Shown here: positions 40,173 to 57,402 of the stretch, piece after piece
Layout: each line of letters begins with the position of its first letter
Position numbering within the stretch: the first letter of the stretch is position 1
Assembly (NCBI GenBank): GCA_041391405.1
Contig: JAWKOB010000005.1
Span: 6,297-70,296, forward strand
DNA from: Bdellovibrionota bacterium
GTDB taxonomy: Bacteria; Bdellovibrionota_G; JALEGL01; JAGRMV01
Length of the DNA stretch: 64,000 nt
Direction of reading: 5' to 3'
Made by a program: the position numbers and the translations under genes
The notes under the pieces: model-generated
Databases searched by the model: none
Seen by the model: only the letters and a program-made list of their open reading frames with translations
What the model was told of the DNA's origin: nothing

Positions 40173-41125
40173 ATGAGCCAACTCCTCAACATATTGTTTT
40201 CTTCGGTTTTTCTGAAGATCATTTTATTCGCCATGTCATTTGTGGCGGTAATCATGCTGGTCTATTATTTGTTTCCTGACGAAGACCAATTGGCTGCTCA
40301 AAAACGCCTTGGCATGGAAGAAGACCGTATTCGTCCCAAAAACATTGCCCTTCTACGTTGGTTTTATCCGATCTACACCAACATCAATGCCTTGATTCCT
40401 CAGTACGCTCCCGAAAAAACCCTCAAGTGGATCGAGAATAAAAAGCCTTATTATCAACAGCGTTTGATTGTGGCCAACGTGCGTGGTGAAATCGGACCCG
40501 AAGAATTTGTGGCGTTTAAGGTTTGTATGGCGATTGTTGTGCCGATTTTGTTCTTTTATTTCGGTGGAGCACTCGGATATTCGATTTCACCTTTCTATAT
40601 TCCACTGATCATGGTTTTGGGATTTTTCTCGGCGGACATTTGGCTCAGGAAAAAGCCATTCTTCGCCAGAAGGCCATTTTGAAATCTCTACCGTACACTT
40701 TGGACCTTCTCACACTGTCCGTGGAAGCGGGTATGGATTTTATCGCAGCCATTCAACGTCTCACTCAACGCACCACCAACAACCCAATGGCGGAAGAATT
40801 CGGTCACATGCTCAAGGAAATTCGCTTGGGTACTGCGCGTTCCGATGCGCTTCGCAACCTGAGCAATCGCCTGGAAATCGAAGAAGTCTCTTCATTCACA
40901 ACGCTTTTGATTCAAGCCGATCAACTTGGCGCCTCAATTGGGGATGTGTTGCGCGCTCAATCCGATCAGCTTCGCACCAAGCGTTTTCAAAATGCGGAAG
41001 CTGCTGGCGCCAGAGCTTCTCAACTGATTTTGTTTCCGTTGATTTTTTGCATTTTCCCGGCCGTATTCATCGTGATTCTGGGACCGACATTGCTCAACAT
41101 GCTCACGCAAGGAATCTTCAGATAA
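40173..41125 (+). pseudogene. tadC: Tad/Flp pilus platform protein TadC (T2SS-F family), one frame break near 40620-40630
   Basis: LPYTLDLLTLSVEAGMDFIAAIQRL and GASIGDVLRAQSDQLRTKRFQNAEAAGARASQLILFPLIFCIFPAVFIVILGP. The pieces are 40173-40682 and 40523-41125. Confidence 0.85.
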
Positions 41126-41469
41126 TGCAAGCGTACAATCAAACTCGTCAAACCACCATCGCTCACCACGTTGAAAAAGCCCACACGATGTTTTCACGCA
41201 TGCGTGGATTGCTCGGCAAAAAAACCATGCCTGAAGGTTTTGGAATGTGGATTTCCCCCTGTTCCTCGATCCATACCTTCTTCATGAAGTTTCCGATCGA
41301 CGTTGCATTTCTATCCTCAGACCAACATGTGGTGAAAGTTCTACACTCTTTCAAGCCTTTCCGTTTATCATCATGGGAGCACTCTTCCTTAAGCGTACTC
41401 GAATTGGCGAGCGGAACGCTTCAGCAAAGTGGTACCCAAGTGGGTGACCGGGTGGTGTTCATCGCATGA
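41125..41469 (+). CDS. DUF192-family protein
   Basis: RMRGLLGKK...GMWISPCSSIHTFFMKFPIDVAFL...VLELASGTL...VGDRVVF. The ATG shares a base with the tadC stop. Confidence 0.75.
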   Translation: MQAYNQTRQTTIAHHVEKAHTMFSRMRGLLGKKTMPEGFGMWISPCSSIHTFFMKFPIDVAFLSSDQHVVKVLHSFKPFRLSSWEHSSLSVLELASGTLQQSGTQVGDRVVFIA

Positions 41470-42566
41470 AAAAAGCATCGTTACATATTATTTCAGGAAC
41501 ACCTGAGCGTCGGGTCACACCACTGGATGTGGGTACCTATATCCTTGGACGTGGCAGTCAGGCCAATGTTCAGATTCCTTCCCGCGAAATTTCACGCAAG
41601 CACGCACAGATCATCGTCAGCGAAGATGAAATCATTTTGCAGGACTGCGGCAGCGCCAATGGAACGCTGCTCAATGGCAACAAGATCATGTTGGAAAAAC
41701 TTAAATCTGGGGACCAGATCACCGTAGCCAACGTGACACTTGAACTGCGCATCGACGATGATTCGGATCAACCCACCGGCAATAAACAATCTTTTGCAAA
41801 TCAAGCCACACTCTATCTCGCCGCGACCAAAGTGACCCAAAAGCTTCGCCCGAAACAACTTTGGCCATTTTTCGTGGCTCTGTTTGGCGTTGCCTTCGTG
41901 GCCTTGTCGATTTTCGGACGTTTGTCGTTCAAGAGCCTTCTCAAACAGCGCCTGCATCGCGATGCCATTTCCCGCGCGCAAGGTCTGGTGAAATATCTCG
42001 CCGAAAAAAACCGCGAGGACGTGAAGCTCAACAATCAGCTTTTGCTGGACGTGGACAGCATCACCAAAGAACGCGGTGTGGTCAAAGCTTACATCATCAA
42101 CAACAAGGGGCGTATCCTGGCTCCGATTCGCAACATCGATGAAAACAATTCAGATCCATTTGTCATGGAAGCACTGGCCCATGATTCGGATCAATCCATG
42201 CTGCCGAGCCCTCCGCTTCCGGATGGAACCCAGATTTTGGTACATCCGATCCGTAGCTACAACGATACCACCGGCAAATACGAAAATATCGGCGTGGCCA
42301 AAATTGTTTTCTCGGCCGACAAATCCATCGGCGAACTCAAAGAAGCCAATCAGCTGATGATTGTTTTGATCATGCTGTCGGTTTTGTTGTCAGTACTGCT
42401 GGGATGGATGGCTTCCAAAACGCTGATCAATCCGATTCAACAACTGGCCGAAAAAATCCAACAGTGGCGCACGGGTCAGAGTTACACTCAAGATACTCCT
42501 CCCTTTGAGGATTTCAAACCCCTGTATGAAGCTGTCGAAAGGGCCATCGAGGAAGTCGATCAATGA
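41466..42566 (+). CDS. FHA-domain membrane protein 1 (FHA, TM, periplasmic domain, TM, HAMP-like helix)
   Basis: FHA: YILGRGSQANVQIPSREISRKHAQIIVSEDEIILQDCGSANGTLLNGNKI. TMs LWPFFVALFGVAFVALSIFG and LMIVLIMLSVLLSVLLGWMA, followed by SKTLINPIQQLAEKIQQW. Confidence 0.85.
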   Translation: MKKASLHIISGTPERRVTPLDVGTYILGRGSQANVQIPSREISRKHAQIIVSEDEIILQDCGSANGTLLNGNKIMLEKLKSGDQITVANVTLELRIDDDSDQPTGNKQSFANQATLYLAATKVTQKLRPKQLWPFFVALFGVAFVALSIFGRLSFKSLLKQRLHRDAISRAQGLVKYLAEKNREDVKLNNQLLLDVDSITKERGVVKAYIINNKGRILAPIRNIDENNSDPFVMEALAHDSDQSMLPSPPLPDGTQILVHPIRSYNDTTGKYENIGVAKIVFSADKSIGELKEANQLMIVLIMLSVLLSVLLGWMASKTLINPIQQLAEKIQQWRTGQSYTQDTPPFEDFKPLYEAVERAIEEVDQ

Positions 42567-43534
42567 GCCAGATCGTAATTTGGACGATCAAAGGCATCGC
42601 CGGAGAATTCGAAGGAAACACCCTTCCCCTCAAAGCCCCCATGATGACCGTGGGTCGCACGCACCAAAACCATATCGTCATCTCTGACACCAACATTTCC
42701 CGCCATCATGCGACTTTTTTCGTCGAAGGCGATCAACTATTTATCCAGGATGAAAAGAGCCGCAATGGCATCTTTGTCAACGACAAGAAAATCGATGCAG
42801 GAATTCGCGTCTTATTGAAACACAACGATCGCATCATGATCGGCCCTCACGGTTTTGCCGTTGAGGTCGAAGAAAAAACACACACCGAGATCCAGCATGC
42901 ACCCACCCGCGAAATGCAATCCACACCGCGCAAAGAGCAAACCCAGTTCCAACCGACCACCCTCCTGAAACACACCGCTTTATTGGAGAAACTCAAAGGT
43001 TTGAAACTGCCGTCCAATATGCCCAAGATCCAATTGAATCGTCGAACCATCATGTACGGAGTGATGGGACTCTTTGTTTTGATGATGATCATGACCAAAC
43101 TTCCCAAAAGCTCCGGAACCAAGAGTAAACCTCAAACCACGCCTTCGGTCGAAATTTTGACCAACAGTTCCGACAGCACCAATACTTCTCCCCTGGACGA
43201 TGCCGAAGTCGATGCATTGAAAGCCCAGGCCAAAGCAGCCTTACAATTTCAGGATTACTTGGCAGCGACGCAGCTTTATGAAAAAATTGTGAAAGCAAAC
43301 CCGAAAGACGAGTACATCAAGACGCAATATGAGTTTTCGAAGAAACAACTCAAGCGCCTGATTGAAAAACATCTCGAGTTTGCCAAACGTGAGTATGAGA
43401 AGCTCAATTATGAGCGCGCCATCATCGAGTGGAAACAGGTTCTCGCACTCACGCTGGAAACAAACCCGGAAGTGTATCAACAAACAGAAACCAAAATCCG
43501 GGATGCTGAGCGGGAAATGCAAAAGAGAAGATGA
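42563..43534 (+). CDS. FHA-domain membrane protein 2 (FHA, TM, TPR-like C-terminus)
   Basis: MTVGRTHQNHIVISDTNISRHHATFFVEGDQLFIQDEKSRNGIFVND, TM IMYGVMGLFVLMMIMT, and TPR-like FQDYLAATQLYEKIVKANPKDEY. Confidence 0.85.
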   Translation: MSQIVIWTIKGIAGEFEGNTLPLKAPMMTVGRTHQNHIVISDTNISRHHATFFVEGDQLFIQDEKSRNGIFVNDKKIDAGIRVLLKHNDRIMIGPHGFAVEVEEKTHTEIQHAPTREMQSTPRKEQTQFQPTTLLKHTALLEKLKGLKLPSNMPKIQLNRRTIMYGVMGLFVLMMIMTKLPKSSGTKSKPQTTPSVEILTNSSDSTNTSPLDDAEVDALKAQAKAALQFQDYLAATQLYEKIVKANPKDEYIKTQYEFSKKQLKRLIEKHLEFAKREYEKLNYERAIIEWKQVLALTLETNPEVYQQTETKIRDAEREMQKRR

Positions 43535-45862
43535 AATTAATTATTCGAAAAGACGGCCAGTTCTTCAAAGAAGTGGATTTTTCCGGATCTGAATTGATTA
43601 TCGGCAGATCCAATGAGGCCGGCGTGCAGCTTCTGCACGAAGATATTTCCCGAAAACACGTCAAGATCAGCCGAACATCCAACAAAATCATCATCGAAGA
43701 CTTGGGCAGCAAAAACGGCACCATGCTTCAAGGTGCGCCCATCCAAAAAAGCGAGATCCAAGAAGGTGAAGTATTCACCATGGGCCCTTTCAGCATTTCC
43801 ATCGAAAGTGTGGCACCTCAGGCTCAACGAACCGTTGTTGAGCATTCGATCGAAGACGAACCTTCCACTCGCTCGTTCAATGAAGATACCAACCTTTCGC
43901 GTCCGAAGATCAAATCCGATGATTTTCCTTCGGCATCATCCCCCGAAGAGGAAGAAGAACCCAACAGCGACTCATTTTTGGATGCCATTGCCGTATCCAA
44001 AAAACAGGATGAAGACATTGAATCGGAAGCTTTCATCGAAGCCGAGCCCGAATCTGAACAAGTCGACCCAGATTCTGAACCCGTGATCGAATATTCAAAA
44101 CCGACCGATCCCTACAAAAAAGTCCCCGAATATCTGGAAGAGGCAAAAGCCCGTAAAAAGAAGGGCAAGAAAAAACCAAAACCTGAGGACGAGGATTACA
44201 AAACAACACCTTATCAGACTTTCAGTCCGAATTGGATGAGGAAGAAAAGCCTGAGTCAGTGGATAGACCCGATGAAGCTCAAATCAAAACCAGGTGAAGC
44301 ATCCTGAATCCACGATGGAGCGTTCTTTGAAAGACTTTCCTTCATTGAGCGAAGAGAATGAAGACGAACCTTCAGATGTCGAAGAGTTTTCCTGAATCGC
44401 GAAATCGACGAGGAAGATCAAACAAGCGTTGAAAGACTTCCCGGACACCAACAAAGTCAGGAAGCAGCCAGGAAGCCGCTGAATCTTCTTCGTTCTCAAT
44501 GGCCTCTGAAGGAGAAATTCAATCCGAAGAACATGTGCCGACCGATCCCATCGAACTTTCTTCACCGAAAATGATCGATGAATCACGAAATTCCGATGCG
44601 ATACCGACGGAATCTTTCTCGACACCTGAAACTGAAATATCGCCACCGGATGAAAGAGATCACATCAAAACCTTCATGTACGATTCAAAAGATCTGCCTT
44701 CCGATCTGTCCGAAAAAACAGACGAATTCAGCTCCAAACCTGGAAACAAAAAATCAATCGTTCTGGCTTTGACCGAAAAATTGAAATTGGTCAAACCGAT
44801 GGTCCAAAAAGTCTTGCAAGATCCAAAAAAGAAGAAGATTGCCTTCATCTCCAGTGCATTGGTGCTTGGTTTTGCAATGTTCTTCATGATGGAAGGTGGA
44901 TCGATCTTCAAAAGAGAACCGGTGGATCCGGAACAGGCCATCAATAGCGAAGAGAAGTTTCGACAAGCTCGGCCGAAGTGAAAAAACGCGTGATCCAAAT
45001 CGATCAAATCAAAAAAGTGATCAACAACAAAGAAGGAAGTCGAAGAAGCCGATGCGCGCATGAAAAAGCTCATGACCCTGGCTGCCAACAACGAATCGTT
45101 CATTCAGTTCGAAAAAGAATATCAAAAACAACGCGATCAGATCACAAATCGAAGCCCGCAAGCAAAAAGAAGCCGAAGAAAAATTGGCTCAAAAAAATGC
45201 GGCGCTGGACGAGGCAAAAAAAATGATGGACGACAAGCAGTATGAGTTGGCCAAGAAAACCTATATGCGTCTACTTGAGACCTATCCAGATGATCCCGAC
45301 GTTCAAGAAAAAATCAGACACTGGAACTTCTGCAGGAACAGGAAGATCGCAAATCGTTCGCCAAAAAACAGCGCTACGACATGCTTTCTCGCATTTATAC
45401 CGAAGGTGTTCAAAAATATGAATCTGGACAAATTGGCCAGGCGCAAAAGCTATTGAAACAGGTCGCTGCTGAAAAAGGGCATCCGGAAATTATAAAGTGC
45501 CAATCAATACCTCGCGAATCGAAAGCTCAACACGGATAAAAAATCAACCAGCGCGTCGCCGCTGCCAAAACCATGATTCAAAACCCCGACACGCTGGTCG
45601 CCGGCTACAACGAGTCAAAAAAATCGTGAGCCCCACAATTTCCTGCGTTCCGGATGCCAAAAAATTGTTGTCGGATGCGAAAATCAAAATGGATAAAAAA
45701 AGCCCGCGAGCTTTATGCCGATGCTCTGGCGCAGGAAGAGCTCGCTGGGGACCCCTGCTGCCGCACTTGATCTATACGAGAAGTCCTTCGTTACGCTCCG
45801 GACAAATCGAACAAGTATCATCAAAAAGCCAAAAGAAAAAAATCGGCAGTTTGCAACTATAG
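43531..45862 (+). pseudogene. FHA-domain membrane protein 3 (FHA, acidic linker, TM, coiled-coil/TPR); many frame breaks; could alternatively be two genes
   Basis: FHA: LIIGRSNEAGVQLLHEDISRKHVKISRTSNKIIIEDLGSKNGTML. Downstream frames give the E/D-rich linker, TM IAFISSALVLGFAMFFMM, and TPR-like KQYELAKKTYMRLLETYPDDPDV and YESGQIGQAQKLLKQV. Confidence 0.6.
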
Positions 45863-45901
45863 CTGACTGGGTTCCGGTCTTTTTAAGAATCTTGAATAAA
45901 G

Positions 45902-45930
45902 GCGAGGTGCACTTTTGGAGTGCACCTCGC
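45902..45930. terminator. Bidirectional hairpin between convergent genes
   Basis: GCGAGGTGCACT-tttgg-AGTGCACCTCGC, a 12-bp perfect stem. Confidence 0.7.
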
Positions 45931-45952
45931 TTCGAACTCGTATCTATGGGCA

Positions 45953-46985
45953 GAGCGTTGAATTGGATCTGACCGAGTTGGAGTTGAACAATACACCGTT
46001 GTAAGCCAAGGCACGGATTCGATACTCAACTGTCAAACCATCTATTGCAGTTAGGTGGCGTGAAGTACATTTGGGATTGGTTGTTGTTGACCGAATGATA
46101 CGTCGGACTAAAACCAATCACTGTGGGCCTCGACTTGCATCCCGATGTATCCGTTAGGTTGGTTGTATGGCCCACCCGGTATAATCATCCCAATTCAAAT
46201 ATTCTGCTGTGGATGTATACTGTGGTGTACTCAAACCAGTTGGGGTTGCAATGTTGGTATAGGCCGTAACCACGTTGCACTAGCTCCAGATGCATGGTCG
46301 CCGGAATCACAAACTGTGATAACGATAGTGAGATCGGACCACCAATCGGCGACATATCGTTGTAAGACGTGCCCGGAACACCGAACCCAGTTTGTGTGGA
46401 AATGTTGCTCCGTGGTTGCTGTTTGGGTCTTGCGTTGAATTTTATAACTGGTCATTTCAGCATAATCTGACGAGTTCCAAGACCATTGCACCTGAGCGTT
46501 ACTTTGCGAAATCACGGAAGCCGAAACACCTGTAGCGACAGGGCATGTGCCCGAACGCCTCCACCGACGGTCAAGTTGGCAAATCCATATTCAGATGCAT
46601 CGCCATCTTCAGTGGTTGCCTTGAGTTTGAAATTATAATCTTGAGTTTGATCGATATCGGACGTGATCACATGGGATGTTTCCGTACCCACATCTACAGT
46701 TTCGTAAACAGACTCGCTGGCTTTTTTATATTCCAACTGAATCGTGTATTCAGCCGCCGTGTAGGTCGGGTTGACCCAGGTCACTTTGATTACGGGCGCC
46801 GTTGCGTTAAGCTCCGTTACTCCAGCTTCCACCTGCGGTTGTAAATTGTGCCGCAATGGAGCTTGGCGGAAGAATAGCTCTGTTCCCAGGTCTTCGCCTC
46901 CCATAGAATTGGAACGGCAACCTGTAATCTGTATCGCAGCCAAAATTGCCGCAATACTAAAGAAGAGCCTGGAATCTTTGTTTCA
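45953..46985 (-). pseudogene. Lipoprotein with about 3 fibronectin type III-like domains, several frame breaks
   Basis: MKQRFQALL(f)SIAAILAAIQITGC signal/lipobox. FN3-like VTELNATAPVIKVTWVNPTYTAAEYTIQLEYKKASESVYETVDVGT...YNFKLKATTEDGDASEYG, plus two further similar units in shifting frames. Confidence 0.65.
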
Positions 46986-47137
46986 TCATTGTCATAAATC
47001 ATCGTGCCTCTCATGCATATGAATATGGCAACGTCCGTGCCAATCAAAATCGATCTAACTTATTGAATTTATAGCTACTTCATAGGTAGGGTGTTTTGGC
47101 GGCTTTGCGCATCACCCAGCCCCTGCGACATCCCTAG

Positions 47138-47160
47138 GTACCCGGTACGGTACCGGGTAC
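47138..47160. promoter_or_regulatory. Perfect 23-bp palindrome (11-1-11) in the divergent region upstream of the flp genes
   Basis: GTACCCGGTAC-G-GTACCGGGTAC, read directly from the sequence. Confidence 0.5.
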
Positions 47161-47264
47161 ACGACGCGCAATGTCGTCAAGGTGATACATACCTTTTCAT
47201 AACGCATTCGGGCTTTCGGAAAAATTCAGCTCTATATATAATAGACACTAAGGAGGTGGCGCCC

Positions 47265-47327
47265 ATGAAGTGCTATTTTTTTGCCCATACGTATAAGCAA
47301 ATTGAATCCGCCATATCAAATAAATAA
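47265..47327 (+). CDS. Candidate 20-codon micro-ORF (MKCYFFAHTYKQIESAISNK) with consensus Shine-Dalgarno
   Basis: AAGGAGG at 47250-47256 lies 8 nt before the ATG. TATAAT-like box at 47237-47242. There is no homology evidence. Confidence 0.3.
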   Translation: MKCYFFAHTYKQIESAISNK

Positions 47328-47413
47328 TCAATGATATCAATATTTTATAATCGGTTGCTGATTTTTTGAACAGTGGCTAACTATTTACATAGGAATAAGG
47401 AAATAGGTGAAAC

Positions 47414-47608
47414 TTGAGCGATATAAAGCCCGGAAATAAAGGGCAAACGCTGGTTGAGTATGTGTTGCTTGTACCGGTGGTAAGTCTGTTCATTTATATG
47501 AGCTTCTTATTTTATCAAGGCTTCGTTCAAGGCAACCTCTATGGACGTACAGCACAGAACTATAACTATTACTCGGCGGAAGAAAATCCGGCCTACGGTC
47601 GAAAATGA
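47414..47608 (+). CDS. flp: Flp-family type IVb/c pilin 1 (TTG start)
   Basis: NKG-QTLVEYVLLVPVVSLFIY matches the Flp motif (G/xTxxEY followed by a hydrophobic stretch). 64 aa. Confidence 0.7.
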   Translation: MSDIKPGNKGQTLVEYVLLVPVVSLFIYMSFLFYQGFVQGNLYGRTAQNYNYYSAEENPAYGRK

Positions 47609-47663
47609 CAGTAGCGCTGCCGTTTCCATAAGCCAGGGATGAAGAAAACAAAAGGAGTAACAA

Positions 47664-47852
47664 ATGATTAAGGTACTTAAAAAAATCAAAAACAAAGAAG
47701 GTCAGACCACACTTGAATACGCACTTGTGATCGGCGTTATCGTCGTCGGCGCAATCATGATGGGTCAACATTTCTTCGGTAAAGATGGCGCAGCCAAAGA
47801 TGTATTCGGCAACGCAATCAAAAACGCTCAAGACACTTTGAAAACAGAGTAA
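47664..47852 (+). CDS. flp: Flp-family type IVb/c pilin 2
   Basis: NKEG-QTTLEYALVIGVIVVGAIMM. AAGGAG lies 7 nt before the ATG. 62 aa. Confidence 0.9.
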   Translation: MIKVLKKIKNKEGQTTLEYALVIGVIVVGAIMMGQHFFGKDGAAKDVFGNAIKNAQDTLKTE

Positions 47853-47963: not shown

Positions 47964-47990
47964 GCAAAGACCCAAATGATTATCTCCTCT

Positions 47991-48040
47991 CCGCTTGGAG
48001 TGGAAAGTTCTCGAGACTTTTCATTTCAAGCGGAGTTTTT
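47991..48040 (+). terminator. Terminator/attenuator-like hairpin between the pilin genes and tadE
   Basis: CCGCTTG...CAAGCGG with inner stem GAAAGT/ACTTTT, followed by agTTTTT just before ATG 48062. Confidence 0.5.
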
Positions 48041-48061
48041 ATGCAAGAGAGTTATAATTCT

Positions 48062-48679
48062 ATGATGAAGCGAGTGAAAAAATTCAGGTCAAGGCACGAC
48101 CGAACTCGCATTACTTCTCCCCGTTCTATTTCTTCTATTCTTCGATGCCGTTCAGGTCATCATTTTTTCTGCAATCTTCCACCATGACTCAGTATGCAGC
48201 GTTTGTTTCGGCACGCGCATTTCAGGTGTATGGCGAATCGAAATCTTCAAAGCATCAACTACCACAAAGTCGCCAGCCCTCATACACCAACGAGGGACAA
48301 ACCATCGCTGAAGCTGCAGCTGAAGCCGTGATTTGAAAGTTTGATGTGGGAGCAACGCGTCGTGTGAGAAGTTCTGGATCAGGTCAACTACCTCAATCGC
48401 GTGTATGAAGACGGAAACAACACCACCCATGGCGGTGGATTTTCACAAAAGCTCGACGGGTGTCGTTCGGGTGAATTTTGTGCCCATCCTCCTGAGTTGC
48501 GACCAAGGCAGCGGGTTGAGGTTCAATACTGCATGCCGATTGTATTTCAGGTATTGACAGTTTTCTTTGAAGCCGTCAAAGGCGAATCTCCATACACGGT
48601 CACTCAAGATGGTCGCACCTATTCTGGAGTCGCAATTTCACACAAAACCAAGTTCGGCCGCGAACCGGTGGAGCCATAA
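48062..48679 (+). pseudogene. tadE: TadE-like pseudopilin, frame breaks (first at the A6 run 48077-48082)
   Basis: MMKRVKK then, after a 1-nt shift, NSGQGTTELALLLPVLFLLFFDAVQVIIFSAI (TadE N-terminal motif). Later pieces lie in two other frames. Confidence 0.7.
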
Positions 48680-49954
48680 TGAAAAATTTTTCCGACATAA
48701 TTCCGGACAACTTGCTGTCGGTTTAGCCTTTGCCTTTGCGGGCATTCTGGCGATGTTTGGTTTGGTGTTTCAATCCACACTCAACACCATCGACAAAGCC
48801 CAACTTCAAACCACATCCGACTACGCAGTTCTGATGGCTTCGCAAAATCAAGCAGCCAATTTGAACGAAATCAAAAAAATCAATGAAGGCATTCAGGCAG
48901 GATTTGCCCTTACTCAATCTGACATTCAACCTTCCTTTGCTCAAATGTACAGCGTTGCCGAACCCTCAGGTCAAAGCATTTTGAAGGAGGCTGCTGCTAT
49001 CGCAGCGTCAACTGCAACTCTAGGACAAGTTGCATCTGGAACTTGCAATGAAATGGGCCAGGCGTGGACAAATGGTATCGCGCAAAAATGATCGGCGCTT
49101 ACACCACAGCTCGAAACCAAGCGGCTTCGGCCATTGTCACCATTGTCACCGATTCCAATGAGCTCAGCTTTCAGCGTGCTTTGGATTATTTTTTGGAGCC
49201 TGGCGGACTTCCACACGGCATGTATTTGAAACTCAAACAAATCTTGGGTGCAAATTTCACTGTGAATCAAGTCAAACATGAATACGAAAAAGGAACGCTA
49301 ACCAATGATGAAGACTTTACCTATCAAATTTTGGACGAAAACCGAGAAGACCCGTTGTTCATTCCGAAAAACGAACCGCGAATGTTTACATACATGAAAT
49401 ATACTTATTCAGAATCTGCCTGCTATTGTTCTCCGACATCGGGCTGTCAAACATGCTGCATGGGAGCACTCATCGGTGCTCCCGGAGCAACTCCGGCCAA
49501 TGCTCGTGTCACCAAGGCCACCGATGACGTTGCTTACTTCTTTGCTGGCGTTCGCTACACACCAGCCTTGAGCATCATTCAAAAAACATTCAAACTGGGC
49601 GTGAAAAATCCCGACGTGCAAAGCTCATCATTTGGTCAAGACATTGACGGAACGTTGAGCGAAGAAAAACTTTTTCGCGAGCGGGACAAACATCAACGCA
49701 CCACCTTCCAAGTCATGTCTGCGGCCAAACCGTATGGTGGAACGTATCCAGAATCTGGCAACTTGATGGACTCAACCGGAATCTCTGGTTCCAATGGAGA
49801 TTCGTTTCTCGGCGCCAAACTTTTTGGTATCGCGGATTTTGATGAAATCGGCGGCGTACGATTGCATCGTGCTGATGGATCCATTGCCAATCGCGACTAC
49901 CAAGGCAACATCAACGGCGAAGTACCGTTCTATGCGGAGGATTTTCTACACTAG
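48679..49954 (+). pseudogene. tadG: TadG-like Flp pilus assembly protein (Tad N-terminal motif), frame breaks
   Basis: HNSGQLAVGLAFAFAGILAMFGLVFQSTLNTIDKAQLQTTSDYAVLMAS. The start ATG overlaps the tadE stop (TAATG). The second piece is 49064-49954. Confidence 0.7.
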
Positions 49955-49998
49955 TGTTTGGGGACACACTCAAACACATAGAAAGACATTTAGAACTT

Positions 49999-51453
49999 AT
50001 GTTTAGATTCAAAACAAAAATACTTGAGTGTGTCCCCGGACGCCAAGCACGTGCCGACCGACGGGTCGGGCAAAGCACGGTAGAACTTGCTTTGTTGCTG
50101 CCAACCCTCGCCTTCATGCTGGGCATGATCATCTACGCCTACAAAGTGAATTACAAAACCAATCAAATCACTACGGAAGCTTTCTCCGAGCGCATGTACA
50201 AATATCACATGGAAGGAAAATTCTATGACCCGATTCAGGGTGTGTATTTTCCCAATGGACAATATTCCGAGTTGATTCCTCCTGATGCTCTCATCGATCC
50301 AGGTGCAATTGCAGGAGAACTCGGCTTACAACTCATCACACAGCTTGGCTTAAGCAAGCTCTTTGATGCGCTCAACATCGACAACTCCACATACTATGGC
50401 GCTTTCGCGCAAGGTTTCACCTATTCGATCGCAGACTCCGCCGTGAATACTTATGTTCAAGATGGATCTCTTCAACAAATGAGCGCGGAAGATTTGGAAA
50501 ATGCAACCTGGGCAGGCTTGGCAAGTGCAGCGGCCAGCCACAATACCAGCGGAGATGGACGCACAGATAATGCAACGAGCACGTTCCAAGGTACAGATCC
50601 AACTGGCTCCAGTCTTCGAGAGTTTTTGGGGTCAGGCGTGCAAGCAGGTTTGATTGGATTTTTCAACAGCCACGGTGACTGGGGAGCAGCTGGCGCCAGC
50701 GCGGTGGGCGGCATGCTCAACTCTGACAGTTCCAAAAATTGGGTATCCACAGGAACCGACGGATTGACCGACTCCAACGGAACAGAAATTTTGCGTGGCG
50801 CGACCAAGGGCGCGGTTCAATCTTCCGTCAGTGGAATCTTTGGTGGAAACTGGGATGCCAAGACTGTCCGCAATTGGTGCCGCATCGGGCACCGTTCAAA
50901 CCGAAACTTTTGCCGAAACCTTCCACTCACCGGCGATGATCAAAAAACTCCGCGATGTACGGCACGTTCAATGGCGTTTTCCAGCGTGGTCAGCGGTGGT
51001 GATGGAACCAGCACACTTGTCTCTGCAGGTATGGGTGCACTCGGCAGTCCAGCAAACCGCCGGAGCACTCGGCGGAAGCGACACATTCAAATACCGCGCA
51101 GTCTCTACCATCGGCGGCGCAGCCAGGACAGATATGTTCAAGGCAATAGTCTGGAAGCCATTGGTATGGGCGCGCTCTCCGGCGCTGTGGGCCAAGGGAT
51201 GGGCTGGGCCGGAAACCAGGTTTCCACTTCTCTTTCCAACAGTTTCAATTCTTCGTCCTCAGGTTCCAATGGAACAAGCGTCAATGGCGCAACCACCGTT
51301 CTGGGCACAGAGCAAACCTCAGATGATCTGGCCAGCGACGACACATTCAACATCAGTATCGATGAAATTTTGAACGGTGCAAACGAAGGCGTGCTCAACG
51401 CTGAGACACTCGAATCATTCGAAGGGCTTCCTCCAGAGGGAGGTTCGGCATGA
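49999..51453 (+). CDS. Large TadE-domain protein with long Gly/Ser/Thr/Ala-rich C-terminal region (internal compensating frame shifts likely around 50790-51200)
   Basis: RRVGQSTVELALLLPTLAFMLGMIIYAY (TadE motif). The C-terminal 300 aa are low-complexity (GSGVQAGLIGFFNSHGDWGAAGASAVGG, SSSGSNGTSVNGATTVLG). The overlapping ORF 50795-51373 reads better locally. Confidence 0.6.
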   Translation: MFRFKTKILECVPGRQARADRRVGQSTVELALLLPTLAFMLGMIIYAYKVNYKTNQITTEAFSERMYKYHMEGKFYDPIQGVYFPNGQYSELIPPDALIDPGAIAGELGLQLITQLGLSKLFDALNIDNSTYYGAFAQGFTYSIADSAVNTYVQDGSLQQMSAEDLENATWAGLASAAASHNTSGDGRTDNATSTFQGTDPTGSSLREFLGSGVQAGLIGFFNSHGDWGAAGASAVGGMLNSDSSKNWVSTGTDGLTDSNGTEILRGATKGAVQSSVSGIFGGNWDAKTVRNWCRIGHRSNRNFCRNLPLTGDDQKTPRCTARSMAFSSVVSGGDGTSTLVSAGMGALGSPANRRSTRRKRHIQIPRSLYHRRRSQDRYVQGNSLEAIGMGALSGAVGQGMGWAGNQVSTSLSNSFNSSSSGSNGTSVNGATTVLGTEQTSDDLASDDTFNISIDEILNGANEGVLNAETLESFEGLPPEGGSA

Positions 51454-51989
51454 GAATCTTAAGCTGGATTTTGATTTTGGCCTTCACGGGATCGGCTTTT
51501 GCTCAAGGCAACCCGAGAATGAAGCTTCGTCCGAAAAAATATGCCGACATCGTCAAATCCGCGAACGAAATCCGTTCGCGTGAGCAACAAATTCGGGAAT
51601 ACTACATGCAGCTGGTGCTTCGCAAAGCTCAGATGGATGTGATCAAAATTTTAGAACGTCGTCGCATGTCCAACGACGACATTCAAAAAGTACTGGCCAG
51701 CGATCAGATGAAATCGTTTCTTACACGATTGGAAAAAAATCCAAAAATCAAGGCACGCGTTGAAGCGCATGTTCAACGTCTGGTTCGTCCTGGAGCCATC
51801 GAAGCTCATGTCATGGCCCAACGAAACAAAATCATTCAAAAACAACATGAGCAACTGCTCGTGGCTCAAAACGAACTTCGCAAATCCAAAACCTTCCGCA
51901 CGGAAGAAAAAGTTCACGAAAAAATGGATGATCGATCGCTTGCTGAAAAAACATGGGATCATTTGATGAAGGATTTGTACAAAGAGTGA
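51450..51989 (+). CDS. Hypothetical secreted coiled-coil protein inside the tad operon
   Basis: Signal peptide MRILSWILILAFTGSAFA. The rest is K/E/Q-rich helical sequence. ATGA overlap with the upstream gene. Confidence 0.6.
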   Translation: MRILSWILILAFTGSAFAQGNPRMKLRPKKYADIVKSANEIRSREQQIREYYMQLVLRKAQMDVIKILERRRMSNDDIQKVLASDQMKSFLTRLEKNPKIKARVEAHVQRLVRPGAIEAHVMAQRNKIIQKQHEQLLVAQNELRKSKTFRTEEKVHEKMDDRSLAEKTWDHLMKDLYKE

Positions 51990-52058
51990 TGCGTCAAAAC
52001 AAGTCCCTAAACTTATTGAAAAAAACCAAGGAATGGCTCATCATATAAGGATAACGTT

Positions 52059-52907
52059 ATGAAAAATCGACGCGCTCTGACATTTGCGATTCTACTCGGT
52101 GTTCTTTCCTTTTTCTTCCTGTTTTTTTACGTCAATTCCATGGAAAAACGCTACCTTGGCAAGTTTGAACAAGTGGGCGTGCTTGTCGCCAAAAATGACA
52201 TCGTACAGTTTGAAGTTTTGGATGAAACGATGCTTGAAATCCGCCAAATCCCAAAACCATATGTTCAACCTTTGGCCGCCACAGCTGAAGATTTGGGACA
52301 AGTTCTTGGCTACGTTGCATCAAACACCATCAAAAAAGGCGAGCAGATCGTCAAAACAAAATTGAACCTTCTGGGTGAAGAAGGCATTTCCCCGATCGTT
52401 CCCAAGGGTTTTCGTGCATGCACCGTTTCTGTGAATGAAGTCACAGGCGTCGGTGGTCACATTCGCAATGGTGACACGGTCGACATCATCGGTACATTCA
52501 AAACTTTGACGGACAAACGCGTGACCAAAGGAATGGAAGCTGTCACGCTCTTTCAAAATGTCCCAGTAATCGCCACCGGAAAAAACTATCGCTTTGATCC
52601 GCGTGTGCAGGCCAACAAAACCAAAGGCTCAATTCTGTCGATGCCGACACAATCATCCGGATTTTCCACGGTCACGCTACAAGTGACTCCTCGCATGTGC
52701 ATGGATCTTTCCATCGCTCAGCAAAGTGGAACGCTCACACTCGCCCTTCGTTCCTTCCACGACCGTTTCTCGGGTGACGTGATTGAAAATCTTAAAAAAG
52801 AACGCAGCACCACTGAATCTGTAACCGGAATCAAAGAACCTATACAAATCAAGGAGACCCCACAATGGTTAGAACAACGCGGAGATCAATCTCTCATCGT
52901 TCCATAA
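52059..52907 (+). CDS. cpaB: Flp pilus assembly protein CpaB/RcpC (TM + SAF-like domain)
   Basis: N-terminal TM LTFAILLGVLSFFFLFFYV. VLVAKNDIVQFEVLDETMLEIRQIPKPYV...TIKKGEQIV. Confidence 0.85.
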   Translation: MKNRRALTFAILLGVLSFFFLFFYVNSMEKRYLGKFEQVGVLVAKNDIVQFEVLDETMLEIRQIPKPYVQPLAATAEDLGQVLGYVASNTIKKGEQIVKTKLNLLGEEGISPIVPKGFRACTVSVNEVTGVGGHIRNGDTVDIIGTFKTLTDKRVTKGMEAVTLFQNVPVIATGKNYRFDPRVQANKTKGSILSMPTQSSGFSTVTLQVTPRMCMDLSIAQQSGTLTLALRSFHDRFSGDVIENLKKERSTTESVTGIKEPIQIKETPQWLEQRGDQSLIVP

Positions 52908-54382
52908 TTTCATCGGCGTTTTTGCTGATCGCGAGCGTATTTTTTATTGCGCCCGCTTTCGCTCAGCAAAATCAACCTGCAGATGAATACTTGGTGACGA
53001 ACAATCCGAAAATCAAAAACGTTTCCTACAGCATCGGTAACATCACGGTGGGCGATCCCAACATCGTGAACTTCAAAGCCGACCGCAAAAAAAATCGCAT
53101 CACTCTTTTCCCGAAAAATCCGGGAACAACCTCGATGATCATTTTCGATCAAAAGGGATCTCAGAAGGAAGTGCTGACCTTGGCCGTATATTCCACTGAT
53201 CCAGAAAAGCTTTTGACGGACGTTCGACAGCTTTTGGTCGACATCGAAGGCATCACGATCAAACGCGTGGGTCAAAAAATCATCATCGATGGCTCGGTCT
53301 TGCTGGGCTCTGAACTCAGCCGTATTCAGAAAATCTCCGCCAACACCAATCAAATCGTGAACCTTGTGACGATCAATCCGGACACGGAACGTTTGCTCGC
53401 CAAACGCATCTCCAAAGAAATCGGCATGGATGAAGTCAATGTTCGTTCCGTCAAAGGAAAAATCCTTCTCGAAGGGGAAGTGTATTCACCTGAAGCCAAA
53501 GTGAAGGCCGAAAAAATCGCTTCGCTTTACGCTGGCGCAGTCATCAACACGTTGGAAGTTCGCGCTGTACCGAATCCTCCGGTTCGCAAAGACACCGTTC
53601 AAGTCACCGCGCACTTTGTGGAAGTGGCCAAAAACTTCTCCAAAAACTTCAACTTCAAATGGAGCCCAATTCCGCAAGTTGGCGTCAACGCATCTTACAG
53701 AATCAATCCAGTTACCGGTTCCGACAGCTTCACCGGCGCATTGACTGGAACGGCGATCGACTTGCTTCCTCGCTTGAACGCATTCAAAGCTTTGGGTGTG
53801 GCCCGCGTTCTTGAAAATCCAACCGTCTCGGTGAAAAGTGGTGACACAGCTACGATCGAGTCCGGCACACAAGTTGGTTTCCCTGTGATTCAACCCAATG
53901 GTTCCGCTGCAATTGAATTCAAAAACGTCGGCGCCCTTCTGAAAATCAAACCATATGTTCAAGGCACCGACATCGACATGGAAATTCAAGTGAAGATGAG
54001 TTCGCTCGGTTCACCTGAAGTTTCCGGAGGTATCGCGATTTCCCAAAACTCGATCGACACCACACAATTGGTTCGCTCCGGTGAATCCGTGGTGATCGGG
54101 GGTTTGGTTCGCAATTCTTACAGACAAGCACTTGATCGTCCACCCAACACTTCAGGCGGTTCTGGTGGCAGTGCCAATACCAGCATGCCGACCGCGACTT
54201 CGGGACAATACGTGGATCCTTTTCCGATGGGATCGCTCTTTACACTCTTCAAATCCACCGAAGAGAGCAAACAGCGTAGCCAATTCATGATCTTCATCAC
54301 CCCGACGATCTTGAAATTCTCGAAAGATGCAAACAAAGAGCTCAAAGACAGCTTCAATTTGTATGAGGTTTATCCAAACTAG
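52865..54382 (+). CDS. cpaC: Tad secretin CpaC/RcpA
   Basis: Signal peptide, pilus-N domain (ITVGDPNIVNFKADRKKNRITLFPKNPGTTSMIIFDQKG) and secretin core (VLENPTVSVKSGDTATIESGTQVGFPV, LVRSGESVVIGGLV). Confidence 0.9.
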   Translation: MVRTTRRSISHRSIISSAFLLIASVFFIAPAFAQQNQPADEYLVTNNPKIKNVSYSIGNITVGDPNIVNFKADRKKNRITLFPKNPGTTSMIIFDQKGSQKEVLTLAVYSTDPEKLLTDVRQLLVDIEGITIKRVGQKIIIDGSVLLGSELSRIQKISANTNQIVNLVTINPDTERLLAKRISKEIGMDEVNVRSVKGKILLEGEVYSPEAKVKAEKIASLYAGAVINTLEVRAVPNPPVRKDTVQVTAHFVEVAKNFSKNFNFKWSPIPQVGVNASYRINPVTGSDSFTGALTGTAIDLLPRLNAFKALGVARVLENPTVSVKSGDTATIESGTQVGFPVIQPNGSAAIEFKNVGALLKIKPYVQGTDIDMEIQVKMSSLGSPEVSGGIAISQNSIDTTQLVRSGESVVIGGLVRNSYRQALDRPPNTSGGSGGSANTSMPTATSGQYVDPFPMGSLFTLFKSTEESKQRSQFMIFITPTILKFSKDANKELKDSFNLYEVYPN

Positions 54383-54384
54383 TT

Positions 54385-56538
54385 GTGGCTGAGAATGAAA
54401 AGAAGAATTATGTAATTAGTGTGGCTGGCCGGTCCCAAGGGCGGGACCGGCTCCTCTGCTTTTGCCGTCAATCTCGCTGCACGCCCTCCTTCGTCAAACC
54501 AAAAGCAAAAGTCCCTGATCATCGATTTCGATCTGCACGATTGTGGAGACGTCGCGCTCTTCATGGGCGCCAAAGACTTGCCTTCGATTTGATTTCGCCC
54601 CAAAGCTCCACAAAATGTCGGAATCGGAAGTCGAGAAGAACATCTACAAAAGCAGAGAGAATTTATCTGCCGGCCATTCGAAAGATCAAACAAGCCGGAC
54701 TTCTGACCTACGACATGGTTTCCAGCATGATCGACATGTGCCGCAGCCAATTTCAATACATCGTGGTGGATTGTGGCAGCCATGTGTATCCGTCCATGAT
54801 CAAAGCGCTGGAAGTTTCATCAATTGTTCTTTTTTGCACCACCGCCGAGATTGTGACGTTGAATCGCTCTGTGCAGTCGCTGCAAGATTATCAAGAATTG
54901 GCGTTTCCTTCGGATTTGATTCAGCTCATCGTGAATCAATACGATCCCAAAGGCGTGATCAATGAGGAACTCATCACGCAAAAACTCAAGCGCAAATGCC
55001 TGGGCTTTTTGCCCAATGAGATCAAGGAAATGCAAAACGCTGTCAATCAAGGTACTGCGATTTTTCAAACGCAACCTCGTGCAATCTATAGCCGCGTGAT
55101 CGAGGATTTGACCCGCAAAATTCTGACCAAAAACATTTTGCAGCCGGTTCAAGCCTTGAGCCTCAAAACGGCCAACCTTGCAGGACCTCAACGAGCCGCC
55201 GTTTCTACGGAAACATCTATCGCTCCCATGTCGAAAAACATCACCAACAAAGACGCGGAACGCATCGACAGCATCAAACAAAGAATTCACGCGCGCTTGA
55301 TTGATGTGATGGATTTCAAAAAGCTTTCACCTGAAGAATTGATGAAGCAGGACGACGAATCTATGGATGCGCTCAAAACCAAAACACAAGAAGCGATCCT
55401 GGGCATCGTATCCCGCATGAATGAAATCACCTCACGGGATGAGCGACAATTGCTCGTCAAAGATGTGTTGGATGAAGCCATCGGACTTGGCCCACTTGAA
55501 GATCTTTTGAAAAATCCGGACGTCAGCGAAATCATGGTCAACCGCGCAGATCAAATCTTTGTGGAGCTCAAAGGAAAGCCAACACTCATTTCCTCGAGAT
55601 TTTCCGGAGATAAGCAATTGATGGGCGTGATCGAACGTATCGTTGCACCGATCGGTCGCCGAATCGATGAAAAAACACCGATGGTCGATGCGCGCTTGAG
55701 AGACGGTTCTCGTGTCCATGCGATCATTCCGCCTTTGGCTCTGGACGGTCCGGTTCTTACCATTCGTAAATTCAGCAAAGATATTTTGGGCCCCGAAACC
55801 TTGATCAAATTCGGCGCTATGACCGAAGAAATGTCGGACTTCCTGCGCGCATGTGTGCAAGCCAAACTCAACATCATCATCTCGGGTGGTACCGGAACAG
55901 GTAAAACGACGCTTCTAAACACGCTGGCGAGCTTCATTCCAAACAATGACCGCATCATCACCGTCGAGGATTCGGCGGAGCTTCGACTGGCGCAAGAACA
56001 CATCGTACGTCTGGAATCCAGACCCGCAAACCTTCAGGGCGAAGGTGCGATTCCGATCCGTGAACTTGTTCGAAATACGCTTCGCATGCGCCCGGACCGA
56101 ATTGTGGTGGGTGAATGTCGTGGCGCCGAAGCACTCGATATGCTTCAAGCCATGAATACAGGTCATGACGGCTCGATGACCACCATTCACTCCAACTCTC
56201 CGCGCGACTCCATCGCTCGTCTGGAAACACTGGTGATGTTTGCCGGAATGGATCTTCCATCCAAAGCCATTCGTGAACAAATTGCGTCCGCTGTTCAATT
56301 GATTGTGCAGTTGACACGAATGGGCGACGGATCCAGAAAAATCACCGCCATCACCGAGGTCACGGGGATGGAAAGCACCACAGTTTCATTGCAGGATATT
56401 TTCCAATTCAAGGAAAAAGGCGTAGATGAACAAGGTAAGGTGCTGGGAAGCTTCCTGGCCACGGGTCTCGTCCCGACCTTCGCACAAACATTCAAGAAAA
56501 AAGGCATCAAGCTGCCGAAAGGATTGATCGGTGGGTAG
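54385..56538 (+). CDS. cpaF: TadZ/CpaE-like ParA-type ATPase domain read in frame with the CpaF/TadA secretion ATPase (apparent fusion; first ~90 codons frame-broken)
   Basis: In a shifted frame: VISVAG-PKGGTGSSAFAVNLAA (deviant Walker A), then YIVVDCGSHVY...IVLFCTTAEIVTLNRS. After a linker comes CpaF: IKQRIHARLIDVMDF, ISGGTGTGKTTLLN, RIVVGECRGAEALDMLQAMNTGHDGSMTTIHSNS. There is no stop between the two halves. Confidence 0.8.
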   Translation: MAENEKKNYVISVAGRSQGRDRLLCFCRQSRCTPSFVKPKAKVPDHRFRSARLWRRRALHGRQRLAFDLISPQSSTKCRNRKSRRTSTKAERIYLPAIRKIKQAGLLTYDMVSSMIDMCRSQFQYIVVDCGSHVYPSMIKALEVSSIVLFCTTAEIVTLNRSVQSLQDYQELAFPSDLIQLIVNQYDPKGVINEELITQKLKRKCLGFLPNEIKEMQNAVNQGTAIFQTQPRAIYSRVIEDLTRKILTKNILQPVQALSLKTANLAGPQRAAVSTETSIAPMSKNITNKDAERIDSIKQRIHARLIDVMDFKKLSPEELMKQDDESMDALKTKTQEAILGIVSRMNEITSRDERQLLVKDVLDEAIGLGPLEDLLKNPDVSEIMVNRADQIFVELKGKPTLISSRFSGDKQLMGVIERIVAPIGRRIDEKTPMVDARLRDGSRVHAIIPPLALDGPVLTIRKFSKDILGPETLIKFGAMTEEMSDFLRACVQAKLNIIISGGTGTGKTTLLNTLASFIPNNDRIITVEDSAELRLAQEHIVRLESRPANLQGEGAIPIRELVRNTLRMRPDRIVVGECRGAEALDMLQAMNTGHDGSMTTIHSNSPRDSIARLETLVMFAGMDLPSKAIREQIASAVQLIVQLTRMGDGSRKITAITEVTGMESTTVSLQDIFQFKEKGVDEQGKVLGSFLATGLVPTFAQTFKKKGIKLPKGLIGG

Positions 56539-57402
56539 TTCATTCAGCATACTCAGTTCATTGATTGTCGTGATGTTCATTGGCGGGGCTGCTTTTTTTG
56601 GTTACCCGTGGGTGGAAGAATTCACACGCAAAAAACTCGAAGGTTACCTGCAAGAATGTGAACTTCTATTGCATCGCATGTTTAAGGAAATGCCGCGCAA
56701 GAAAATGATCATGATCATTGCCGGATCCACGTTTTTCTTGGGTTTGGTGGGTTTTGTTCTCACATTGGGGTTTGGGTGGATCAATATTTTGTTCACGGTC
56801 ACACTCGCGGCCATCGGCTATCAGTCTTTTCGCATGTGGCTGAAATTTTTCTGGGAACGTCGACTCAATGAATTCAACGAACAACTGGTGGATGCGCTGA
56901 ACCTTTTGGCCAATTCCCTGAAATCTGGATTGAACCTTTCGCAAGCATTGCAAGTGTTGATTCAGGAGAGCAAACCACCAATGTCCCAAGAATTTGGCTT
57001 GGTGCTATCCCAAAGAAAATTGGGGCTCACCATCGATGAGGGCCTTGGAAAAAATGCTCGAGCGCATTCCCAGCGACGATCTGGCCGTTGCTATCCACTC
57101 GGTTTTGATTCTGCGCGAAACGGGTGGCGTCTATCTGAAACATTTGAAACCATCGCCTCGACCATTCGCGAACGTAGAAAAGTTTCTGGAAAGATCAAAT
57201 CGATGACCCAACAAGGCAAGATGCAGGGCTTGATCCTCCTCCTTTGCCATTCGGTCTTGGTGCCATGCTTTACGTCGTCAACCACCGTACATCATTCCAC
57301 CTGGTCACCACCCAACTTGGCTGGATCATGATTTTTGTGATGCTGATGTTCCAGGGCGTTGGCGCCCTCTGGATCAAAAAAATCGTCAATATCGACGTTT
57401 AG
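56531..57402 (+). pseudogene. tadB: Tad/Flp pilus platform protein TadB (T2SS-F family), several frame breaks
   Basis: FNEQLVDALNLLANSLKSGLNLSQALQVL. Shifted frames give LEKMLERIPSDDLAVAIHSVLILRETGG and the C-terminal TM GWIMIFVMLMFQGVGALWIKKIV. Stop at 57400-57402. Confidence 0.8.

Follow-up and report, generated by a model that had tools for sequence, protein, structure and literature searches.

A probable Kil-like Tad (Flp) pilus locus with a tadC-DUF192-FHA operon in a Bdellovibrionota genome

A stretch of 64,000 nucleotides from a metagenome-assembled genome (MAG) of Bdellovibrionota (assembly GCA_041391405.1, contig JAWKOB010000005.1, positions 6,297 to 70,296 of the forward strand; hereafter the window) carries a locus which very probably codes for a Kil-like Tad (type IVc, Flp) pilus machine, of the subtype found in Myxococcus, Bradymonadales and Bdellovibrio. 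Its tadC gene heads a translationally coupled operon that continues with a DUF192 gene and the genes of three inner-membrane FHA proteins, while the remaining core genes form a second block that runs from two flp genes to tadB (Table 1). A Kil-like Tad/Flp system had been recognised in a first-pass annotation of this DNA and is borne out by the parts present, the FHA set and the trees of core proteins. Such systems are already published for this group: roughly 80% of Bdellovibrionota genomes are reported to have one, and the window adds a further case. Modestly new here are the contiguous layout, a TadZ::CpaF fusion, a sensor-like FHA protein, the conserved DUF192 gene and the occurrence of the module in phyla without known predators.

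Genes were assigned by a Pfam search of the open reading frames (ORFs) of the window, which has a GC content of 46%, and of intact orthologues from the related loci L001 and L088, which were mapped back by tblastn. L001/L088 represent an intact relative, 88% identical, that served as reference for the window genes; the right half of the locus in relatives was recovered via P0163 and L088. Scanning one genome per species with a TadC profile yielded at least 80 loci, and the distribution counts given below are counts among the matches listed. B. bacteriovorus and M. xanthus were compared via a published supermatrix and published tables.

Table 1. Genes of the pilus locus and of its immediate surroundings in the window (aa, amino acids; TM, transmembrane)
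Gene or product	Position	Strand	Evidence and remarks
PEGA3, PEGA-domain envelope protein	35868-37259	-	Pfam PEGA
PEGA2, PEGA-domain envelope protein	~37262-38625	-	Pfam PEGA; frameshifted
PEGA1, PEGA-domain envelope protein	38647-40064	-	Pfam PEGA
tadC, inner-membrane platform (T2SSF family)	40173-41125	+	Pfam T2SSF 9.9e-20; split by 1-nt deletion
DUF192 protein	41125-41469	+	Pfam DUF192 2.3e-20; 113 aa, without signal peptide or TM segment
FHA1	41466-42566	+	Pfam FHA 2.3e-16; 100% identity to an NCBI protein of a Bdellovibrionota MAG
FHA2	42563-43534	+	Pfam FHA 7.8e-19
FHA3	43531-45862	+	Pfam FHA 3.6e-15; several frameshifts; 818 aa in relatives
FN3-domain lipoprotein	about 45944-47010	-	weak fn3 matches; lipobox ITGC; 351 aa in relatives; frameshifted
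Flp-type prepilin 1	47414-47608	+	KG/QTLVEY motif; 83% identity to L001 Flp1
Flp-type prepilin 2	47664-47852	+	EG/QTTLEY motif; 76% identity to L001 Flp2
TadE-like minor pilin	48041-48679	+	213 aa in relatives; frameshifted; tblastn to L001 TadE; Pfam TadE 4.9e-8 on L001 orthologue
Large TadG/KilN-like minor pilin candidate	48567-49954	+	452 aa in relatives; N-terminal pilin-like hydrophobic helix; frameshift near 49060
Large TadE-domain minor pilin	49954-51453	+	482 aa in relatives; N-terminal Pfam TadE match; 69% identity to L001; Gly/Ser/Ala-rich C-terminal region
179-aa signal-peptide protein	51450-51989	+	helical, charged sequence; ATGA overlap with preceding gene
CpaB/RcpC periplasmic alignment protein	52059-52907	+	Pfam RcpC 2.1e-24 and SAF
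CpaC/RcpA secretin	52865-54382	+	Pfam Secretin 1.1e-24, pil_N, BON
TadZ (ParA/MinD-like)::CpaF fusion ATPase	54385-56538	+	~717 aa; Pfam T2SSE 2.2e-63 and weak CbiA; N-terminal 100 codons frameshifted
tadB, second T2SSF platform protein	56531-57402	+	Pfam T2SSF 4.6e-11; frameshift near 57240; tblastn to intact 290-aa TadB of L088

The junctions of the tadC operon leave no intergenic space. The tadC stop codon and the DUF192 start codon share a base (TAATG), and ATGA overlaps join DUF192 to FHA1, FHA1 to FHA2 and FHA2 to FHA3, which confirms the module as initially described. The two pieces of tadC are 85-95% identical to the intact 317-aa TadC of L001 (tblastn). The FHA3 gene is recovered as tblastn pieces at 43531-44415 and 44493-45839, and the ORF at 45497-45862 has a C-terminus that matches that of L001 FHA3. 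What had been read as a separate coiled-coil gene is actually the frameshifted C-terminal part of this ~800-aa protein. DUF192, small and soluble, has no informative structural relative: a comparison to the sequences of the PDB gave nothing significant (best hit 3m7a, E 0.26) and no functional lead. The layout, formerly considered atypical, is not so for this group. Detachment of the tadC operon from tadB is the normal state in this phylum, as tadC of B. bacteriovorus (Bd0470) is also found away from tadB in the company of FHA genes and the relatives of the MAG share the gene order of the window. Its domain content and the gene order, set against published data, suggest that the tadC-DUF192-FHA operon is the counterpart of Bd0470-Bd0475; its order and overlaps reproduce the B. 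bacteriovorus arrangement in which tadC lies apart from tadB and leads an FHA operon.

All core Tad parts that the first-pass annotation listed (tadC, two flp genes, TadE- and TadG-like pilins, CpaB, CpaC, TadZ/CpaF and tadB) can be read by Pfam and by comparison with the intact relative. The locus thus combines the hallmarks of a Tad/Flp (type IVc) system: Flp prepilins, CpaF with TadB and TadC, CpaB with CpaC and a TadZ-like ParA domain. Three consecutive genes, whose products have 213, 452 and 482 aa in relatives, feature pilin-type amino termini and are candidates for a minor-pilin triad like KilL/M/N. In the Pfam search no match was obtained for the 452-aa TadG-like candidate nor for the 179-aa signal-peptide protein, and the CpaC secretin gave no match to N0 or Secretin_N.

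TadZ and CpaF are both present, as had been noted, but not as separate proteins: they are fused in one reading frame. In the window this frame is unbroken from mid-TadZ onward. In L085, one of only four short contigs found by a metagenome scan with CpaC, it is unbroken from the start codon (MAENKNFVISVAGPKGGSGVTT...) and includes the Walker-A variant GPKGGSGVTT. The homologue in the Terriglobia locus L054 is a single 819-aa protein with CbiA/AAA_31 and T2SSE matches, P0164 has both domains, and in L088 only a frameshift parts TadZ from CpaF. A search for TadZ-domain homologues returned only 8 proteins, too few to give a frequency of the fusion.

The phosphothreonine-pocket residues Arg, Ser, His and Asn (GR ... 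S-x-x-H ... N-G) are kept in all three FHA domains, according to their sequences and alignment. Hydropathy places these domains in the cytoplasm and predicts two TM segments in FHA1 and one each in FHA2 and FHA3. In FHA2 the segment is followed by a short periplasmic TPR-like helical domain (weak TPR_14 match in the L001 orthologue). FHA3 has an acidic disordered linker of ~380 aa between the FHA domain and the TM segment, beyond which lies a periplasmic TPR region; its intact 818-aa orthologue gives FHA and TPR matches in Pfam. By domain content it resembles KilD of Myxococcus and Bd0474 of Bdellovibrio.

FHA1 has a different organization, with the cytoplasmic FHA domain followed by a TM segment, a periplasmic PDC/Cache-like sensor domain, a second TM segment and HAMP-like helices. 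AlphaFold (AF2) models, whose confidence score (pLDDT) is 82 for the full-length protein and 84 for residues 126-366 alone, display an alpha/beta periplasmic domain flanked by two TM helices, the first of them long, with cytoplasmic helices after the second. The Foldseek search with full-length FHA1 was swamped by FHA-domain matches, and residues 126-366 were therefore modelled separately. This segment matches the sensor modules of WalK (E 2e-8; TM-score 0.65 for erWalK), CitA (TM-score 0.71), DcuS and dCache chemoreceptors; secretion-system ring proteins and ring-building motifs were not matched. The topology of the models and these matches give FHA1 the appearance of a sensor kinase in which an FHA domain takes the place of the kinase.

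These features bear on an alternative to the pilus machine, in which the locus would mainly code a device for secretion or effector delivery, similar to a type II secretion system (T2SS) or acting as partner of a type III secretion system (T3SS), with the FHA proteins forming rings of the YscD/PrgH type. The Yop-YscD_cpl model of Pfam is also matched by all three FHA domains, Myxococcus MXAN_4649 had a PrgH-like annotation, and Kil needs a needle-less T3SS in order to function. However, no T3SS genes were found in the window, which has its own separate, complete-looking T2SS cluster, and the candidacy of FHA1 as a PrgH/YscD-like ring protein was rejected for the periplasmic part, which matches PDC/Cache sensors (WalK, CitA, DcuS) and not ring-building motifs. 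A secretion device is thus improbable. A looser parallel exists with the PpkA/PppA/Fha1 proteins of the type VI secretion system (T6SS) and with YscD/PrgH of the T3SS, where FHA modules are found at or in the inner membrane beside a secretion or pilus ATPase, and with their phospho-switches, since a Hanks kinase and a PP2C phosphatase are linked to the module in related loci. It is a resemblance in working and not family membership: these are other machines, whereas FHA1 combines a sensor-kinase-type PDC domain and HAMP-like helices with no enzymatic output.

The closest known counterpart of the pilus machine within the phylum is that of B. bacteriovorus HD100. Related systems were described in Bdellovibrionales and Bradymonadales, with the HD100 core at Bd0110-Bd0119 and Bd0470 as TadC homologue (PMC8460266). 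HD100 and the window share two flp genes, a TadE-like gene, cpaB, cpaC, cpaF and tadB in one block and a detached tadC that heads an FHA operon, in which Bd0474, a large membrane protein of the FHA-TPR kind, is comparable to FHA3. Identity amounts to 55% for CpaF (229 aligned columns) and to 41-43% for TadC (161 columns). The two blocks lie ~350 genes apart in HD100 but are separated by 1-2 kb in the window, on one strand. Bd0474 has two FHA domains while window FHA3 has a single one and the long acidic linker; the gene that precedes cpaB codes a putative peptidase-like protein in HD100 (Bd0114) and the 179-aa soluble protein in the window.

The Myxococcus Kil system is a Tad-like, FHA-rich apparatus coded by two clusters, with an FHA::CpaF motor and the FHA-TPR protein KilD (Seef et al. 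2021, PMC8460266). M. xanthus (MXAN_3102-3108 and MXAN_4648-4661) and the window have in common the Tad core distributed over more than one operon, several FHA proteins, FHA and FHA-TPR genes that adjoin the tadC homologue (kilH), a secretin with pil_N, BON and Secretin domains, and TadE/F/G-like minor-pilin triads, the one in the window being a candidate. The Kil hallmark of multiple FHA proteins is found in the window as three of them, including the FHA-TPR protein identified through the FHA3 orthologue. The amino-terminal domain of the motor differs, being FHA in KilF and TadZ/ParA-like in the window. According to its description Kil lacks TadZ, and DUF192 is not among the components listed for Myxococcus. 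KilA, the prepilin peptidase, is coded inside the Myxococcus cluster and not in the window, and the Tip1-4 families are limited to Myxococcota. Classical Tad/Cpa systems (Aggregatibacter tad, Caulobacter cpa) share the Flp G/XXXXEY site, CpaF/TadA, TadB, TadC, CpaB/RcpC, CpaC/RcpA, the TadZ/CpaE-type ParA domain and the TadE/F/G pseudopilins, but carry neither FHA nor DUF192 genes, have TadZ/CpaE as a separate protein, and include the TadD pilotin and TadV/CpaA peptidase in the locus.

Trees separate the window from the latter. The window CpaF, the TadC of its relative and homologues from 80 genome loci were added to the published supermatrix columns and submitted to neighbour-joining with 200 bootstrap replicates, which yields distance trees from short alignments. 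Tad systems of the alpha-proteobacterial and Desulfovibrio type split off in 200/200 replicates for TadC and 192/200 for CpaF. The window TadC clade, which includes the Bdellovibrionota and Oligoflexia MAGs L004-L010 and L015, is found in 194/200, and in 200/200 the reference closest to it belongs to Myxococcales or to the Bdellovibrio group (BALO). The core proteins are thus placed, by sequence, with the systems of Myxococcales, Bdellovibrionales and Bradymonadales and not with the alpha-proteobacterial Tad.

The use of the machine can be approached through B. bacteriovorus genetics. Mutants Bd0470::tn and Bd0474::tn are unable to kill prey (Duncan et al. 2019, PMC6561027); the mutant in Bd0474, an FHA protein gene of the same operon, attaches and neither kills nor rounds its prey (PMC6561027). 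Within Bd0470-Bd0475, Bd0473 is a 386-aa FHA protein and Bd0474 a 674-aa protein with two FHA domains, a TM segment and an extracytoplasmic TPR region, which binds Bd0075 (PMC12034629). TadE/F/G-like minor pilins form pilus 'tips', and such tips were predicted and modelled for Bdellovibrio (Herrou et al. 2025, PMC12075869). In view of these mutants, of Bd0474-Bd0075 binding and of the tip models, it was an overstatement to present the accessory components as functionally undescribed. Because Bd0470 and Bd0474 mutants fail to kill, a predatory use (prey attachment, killing or invasion) is proposed as the most likely one in the organism studied here; drawn by analogy, this proposal is held with belief and doubt about evenly balanced.

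Several points weigh against a Kil-like machine used in predation. The role in predation follows only from analogy, with the B. bacteriovorus transposon mutants and with M. xanthus genetics, and the likeness to Bd0471-Bd0475 and to the Myxococcus FHA proteins is based on published descriptions. One Kil hallmark is missing, since the window motor has a TadZ-like domain and lacks the FHA domain that marks Myxococcus KilF. Branches inside the large Kil-containing clade carry too little support (<25%) to place CpaF. Kinase, phosphatase and prepilin peptidase were not found within the 64-kb window, several genes of the locus are frameshifted in this assembly, and the same module exists in phyla without known predators.

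The last point deserves attention. Among the listed loci with enough downstream sequence, DUF192 directly follows tadC in 39 of 62; at least one FHA gene is found in 51 of these 62 and both DUF192 and FHA in 38. Three or more FHA domains are present in 32 of the 51 listed loci with at least 5 kb downstream. MAGs with the module bear the labels Bdellovibrionota, Oligoflexia, Bacteriovoracaceae, Bradymonadales and Myxococcota. Two Terriglobia, one Vicinamibacteria and one Schekmanbacteria MAG also have the full tadC-DUF192-FHA set; in the Acidobacteriota, KSB1 and WOR-3 MAGs tadC is followed by FHA genes, and DUF192 was not detected. The order in these other-phylum loci, except KSB1, is contiguous: cpaB-cpaC-tadZ::cpaF (or an FHA match upstream of cpaF)-tadB-tadC-(DUF192)-FHA, an arrangement confirmed by Pfam for L054. 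FHA matches just upstream of cpaF, possibly reflecting FHA::CpaF, are seen in L060, L062, L065, L068, L069, L074, L076, L079 and L082. The first-pass annotation would have seen an ordinary adhesion locus if the module existed in non-predatory relatives, and this is partly the case, in the MAGs labelled Terriglobia, Vicinamibacteria, Acidobacteriota, Schekmanbacteria, KSB1 and WOR-3. Since the module occurs in groups not known to prey, a predation-specific role is not inferable from the gene set alone.

The locus could then code for an ordinary Tad pilus for adhesion or surface sensing, its FHA and DUF192 components serving one old Tad subclass as a general switch by Ser/Thr phosphorylation, with no special tie to predation. 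This reading, somewhat unlikely, draws on the presence of the full module after cpaB-cpaC-tadZ::cpaF-tadB in the four MAGs of Terriglobia, Vicinamibacteria and Schekmanbacteria, on the FHA genes of the three groups without detected DUF192, on the GC content of these other-phylum loci (57-69%), which fits their labels and not Bdellovibrionota, and on the DUF192 and FHA counts above. Yet in B. bacteriovorus, the only relative in which genetics has been done, prey killing requires tadC and the FHA-TPR gene of the operon, and several public MAG labels in the set are plainly wrong. The adhesion reading also overlaps with that of a Kil-like predation machine, as a general switch could serve predation here.

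Mislabelled-looking records are L018, L021, L026, L031, L032, L035, L036, L038, L042-L045, L052, L066 and L082. Labels among them include 'uncultured Enterobacterales', 'Klebsiella pneumoniae' and 'Kuenenia stuttgartiensis' (62% GC), while their loci carry tadC-DUF192-FHA and, apart from L082, group with Myxococcota-labelled MAGs in the TadC tree. Several public labels being plainly unreliable, the taxonomy needs rechecking. In Terriglobia L054 a second T2SSE ATPase of the PilB/MshE type (MshEN domain) and a large TPR protein are coded directly after the FHA genes (16661-20148), and this ATPase possibly serves that cluster as a second motor.

A wider interpretation is offered tentatively, as a possibility with rather less than an even chance of being right. 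The set tadC-DUF192-FHA(n), usually accompanied by TadZ::CpaF or FHA::CpaF, may define an old 'phospho-gated' Tad subclass across Bdellovibrionota, Myxococcota, Bradymonadales, Acidobacteriota, Schekmanbacteria, KSB1 and WOR-3. Kil would be one of its uses, in predation, without being a predation marker, FHA1 a sensor-kinase-like receptor with FHA output and DUF192 an overlooked core accessory. The kil genes are now taken as genomic evidence of a predatory lifestyle (e.g. PMC13200544), and the module in non-predator phyla calls for caution. The sensor-like FHA1 and the conserved DUF192 point to two candidate genes within the Bd0471-0473 region of B. bacteriovorus.

Phosphorylation is suggested by gene neighbourhood in other lineages. 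Hanks kinases and/or PP2C phosphatases are coded within a few kb of the module in L030, L032, L044, L063, L065 and L069, although neither was found in the window or its closest relatives. Phospho-regulation fits the module because these genes adjoin it in related loci, and they are concrete candidates for a long-proposed phospho-signalling step; FHA proteins were named candidate signalling elements in a 2025 review (PMC12428579). The proposal of a phosphothreonine-regulated predation machine, made at first reading, is accordingly retained in part: the conserved pockets and the enzymes linked to the module elsewhere favour the regulation, while the predation-specific side is weakened by the non-predator phyla, and the window has none of these enzymes. 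L065 (397-16407) and L069, from unclassified MAGs of ~39% GC, are the most complete single-locus version found, with the order PP2C, prepilin peptidase, cpaB, cpaC, an FHA match upstream of cpaF (possible FHA::CpaF), tadB, tadC, DUF192, FHA genes and a Hanks kinase with an NHL beta-propeller. They would provide a good model locus for the phospho-gating idea.

The absence of a prepilin peptidase (CpaA/TadV) and of TadD from the window, reported at first reading, holds. None of the large ORFs matched Peptidase_A24, and the six-frame translation of the 64-kb window contains no GxGDVK motif, while the same motif scan was positive in the related loci L065, L068 and L082. No TadD-type TPR pilotin lipoprotein was matched by Pfam in the cluster, and Kil systems likewise lack TadD (PMC8460266). 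The 179-aa protein, coded where HD100 has Bd0114, was for that reason weighed as the missing peptidase; its signal peptide and the lack of any other TM segment led to its rejection. The T2SS cluster of the window is also without a peptidase gene and a shared peptidase elsewhere in the genome is therefore likely.

A working scheme for the machine can be proposed. An unlinked prepilin peptidase would process the pilins, and the minor-pilin triad would prime the Flp filament and cap it as a 'tip'. The three FHA proteins might form a membrane-spanning regulatory layer around the TadBC-CpaF platform, with periplasmic domains that relay cues from the envelope or from contact. Partners phosphorylated on Ser/Thr would be bound by the FHA domains; a Hanks kinase would write these marks and a PP2C phosphatase erase them, both coded elsewhere in the genome. 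Pilus assembly could thereby be switched on at the right place and time.

At least seven cluster genes are interrupted in the window: tadC, FHA3, the FN3 gene, TadE, the 452-aa gene, the TadZ part of the ATPase gene and tadB. Frameshift sites are found for example at 40647, 44300-46000, 48000-49100, 54400-54700, 57240 and 62006-63987. These interruptions could mean that the locus is decaying and that the pilus is no longer made. Such decay is very improbable. Outside the cluster PEGA2 and the housekeeping H+-pyrophosphatase gene (H+-PPase; three ORF pieces) are interrupted too, and the tadC lesion near 40647 is only a 1-nt deletion in an AA run when compared to the 88%-identical relative, a homopolymer indel; the window-wide interruptions are for these reasons likely to be assembly noise. 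L001 and L002, JGI assemblies from a related population, code identical proteins yet their frameshifts fall in different genes, showing that such data carry assembly indels. Outside the indels the proteins retain 70-95% identity to intact relatives. The frameshifts are thus likely, from sequence comparison, to be noise and not biology. The window-wide pattern is typical of unpolished long-read assemblies, and the public protein set of the MAG is probably fragmented.

The antisense FN3 lipoprotein gene that was said to split the locus does exist, but it is probably a genus-specific insertion between two operons and not part of the machine. Among the related loci tblastn detects it only in this genus (the window and L001-L003), on which ground it was rejected as a component of the system. 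In the relatives L004, L006, L008 and L015 flp directly follows FHA3 on the same strand. As these relatives without the FN3 gene are contiguous, the ancestral arrangement in the clade would be a single co-directional cluster from tadC to tadB.

On the other side of tadC, and divergent from it, lie the three paralogous PEGA genes. Their products have C-terminal hydrophobic stretches, with a TM segment scored in PEGA2 only. The trio is found upstream of tadC in L001-L004, L007, L008 and L015 and partly in L005, L006 and L009, and more distant loci lack it. These proteins may be an accessory of the pilus in the envelope, specific to the clade.

Downstream of tadB, the segment 58738-60758 (L088 13571-15667) codes for a 698-aa secreted protein without Pfam match. 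Identity between window and L088 is 30-47% for this protein versus 70-90% for its neighbours, so that it is fast-evolving, heavily frameshifted, or both. A Phd/YefM-type antitoxin and a PIN-domain toxin (61371-61959), kept in L088, separate the pilus locus from the H+-PPase gene. The T2SS cluster occupies positions 2333-15613 and codes for GspC with a PDZ domain, GspD with N0 and Secretin_N, GspE, GspF, GspG, minor pseudopilins and PilM-like and GspM-like proteins. It is followed by PilZ-domain genes at 15681-16271 and 27572-28279. The minus strand at 29364-32385 carries two genes of the squalene/phytoene-synthase family and one of the amine-oxidase family, which resemble a squalene synthesis set of the HpnC/HpnD/HpnE type.

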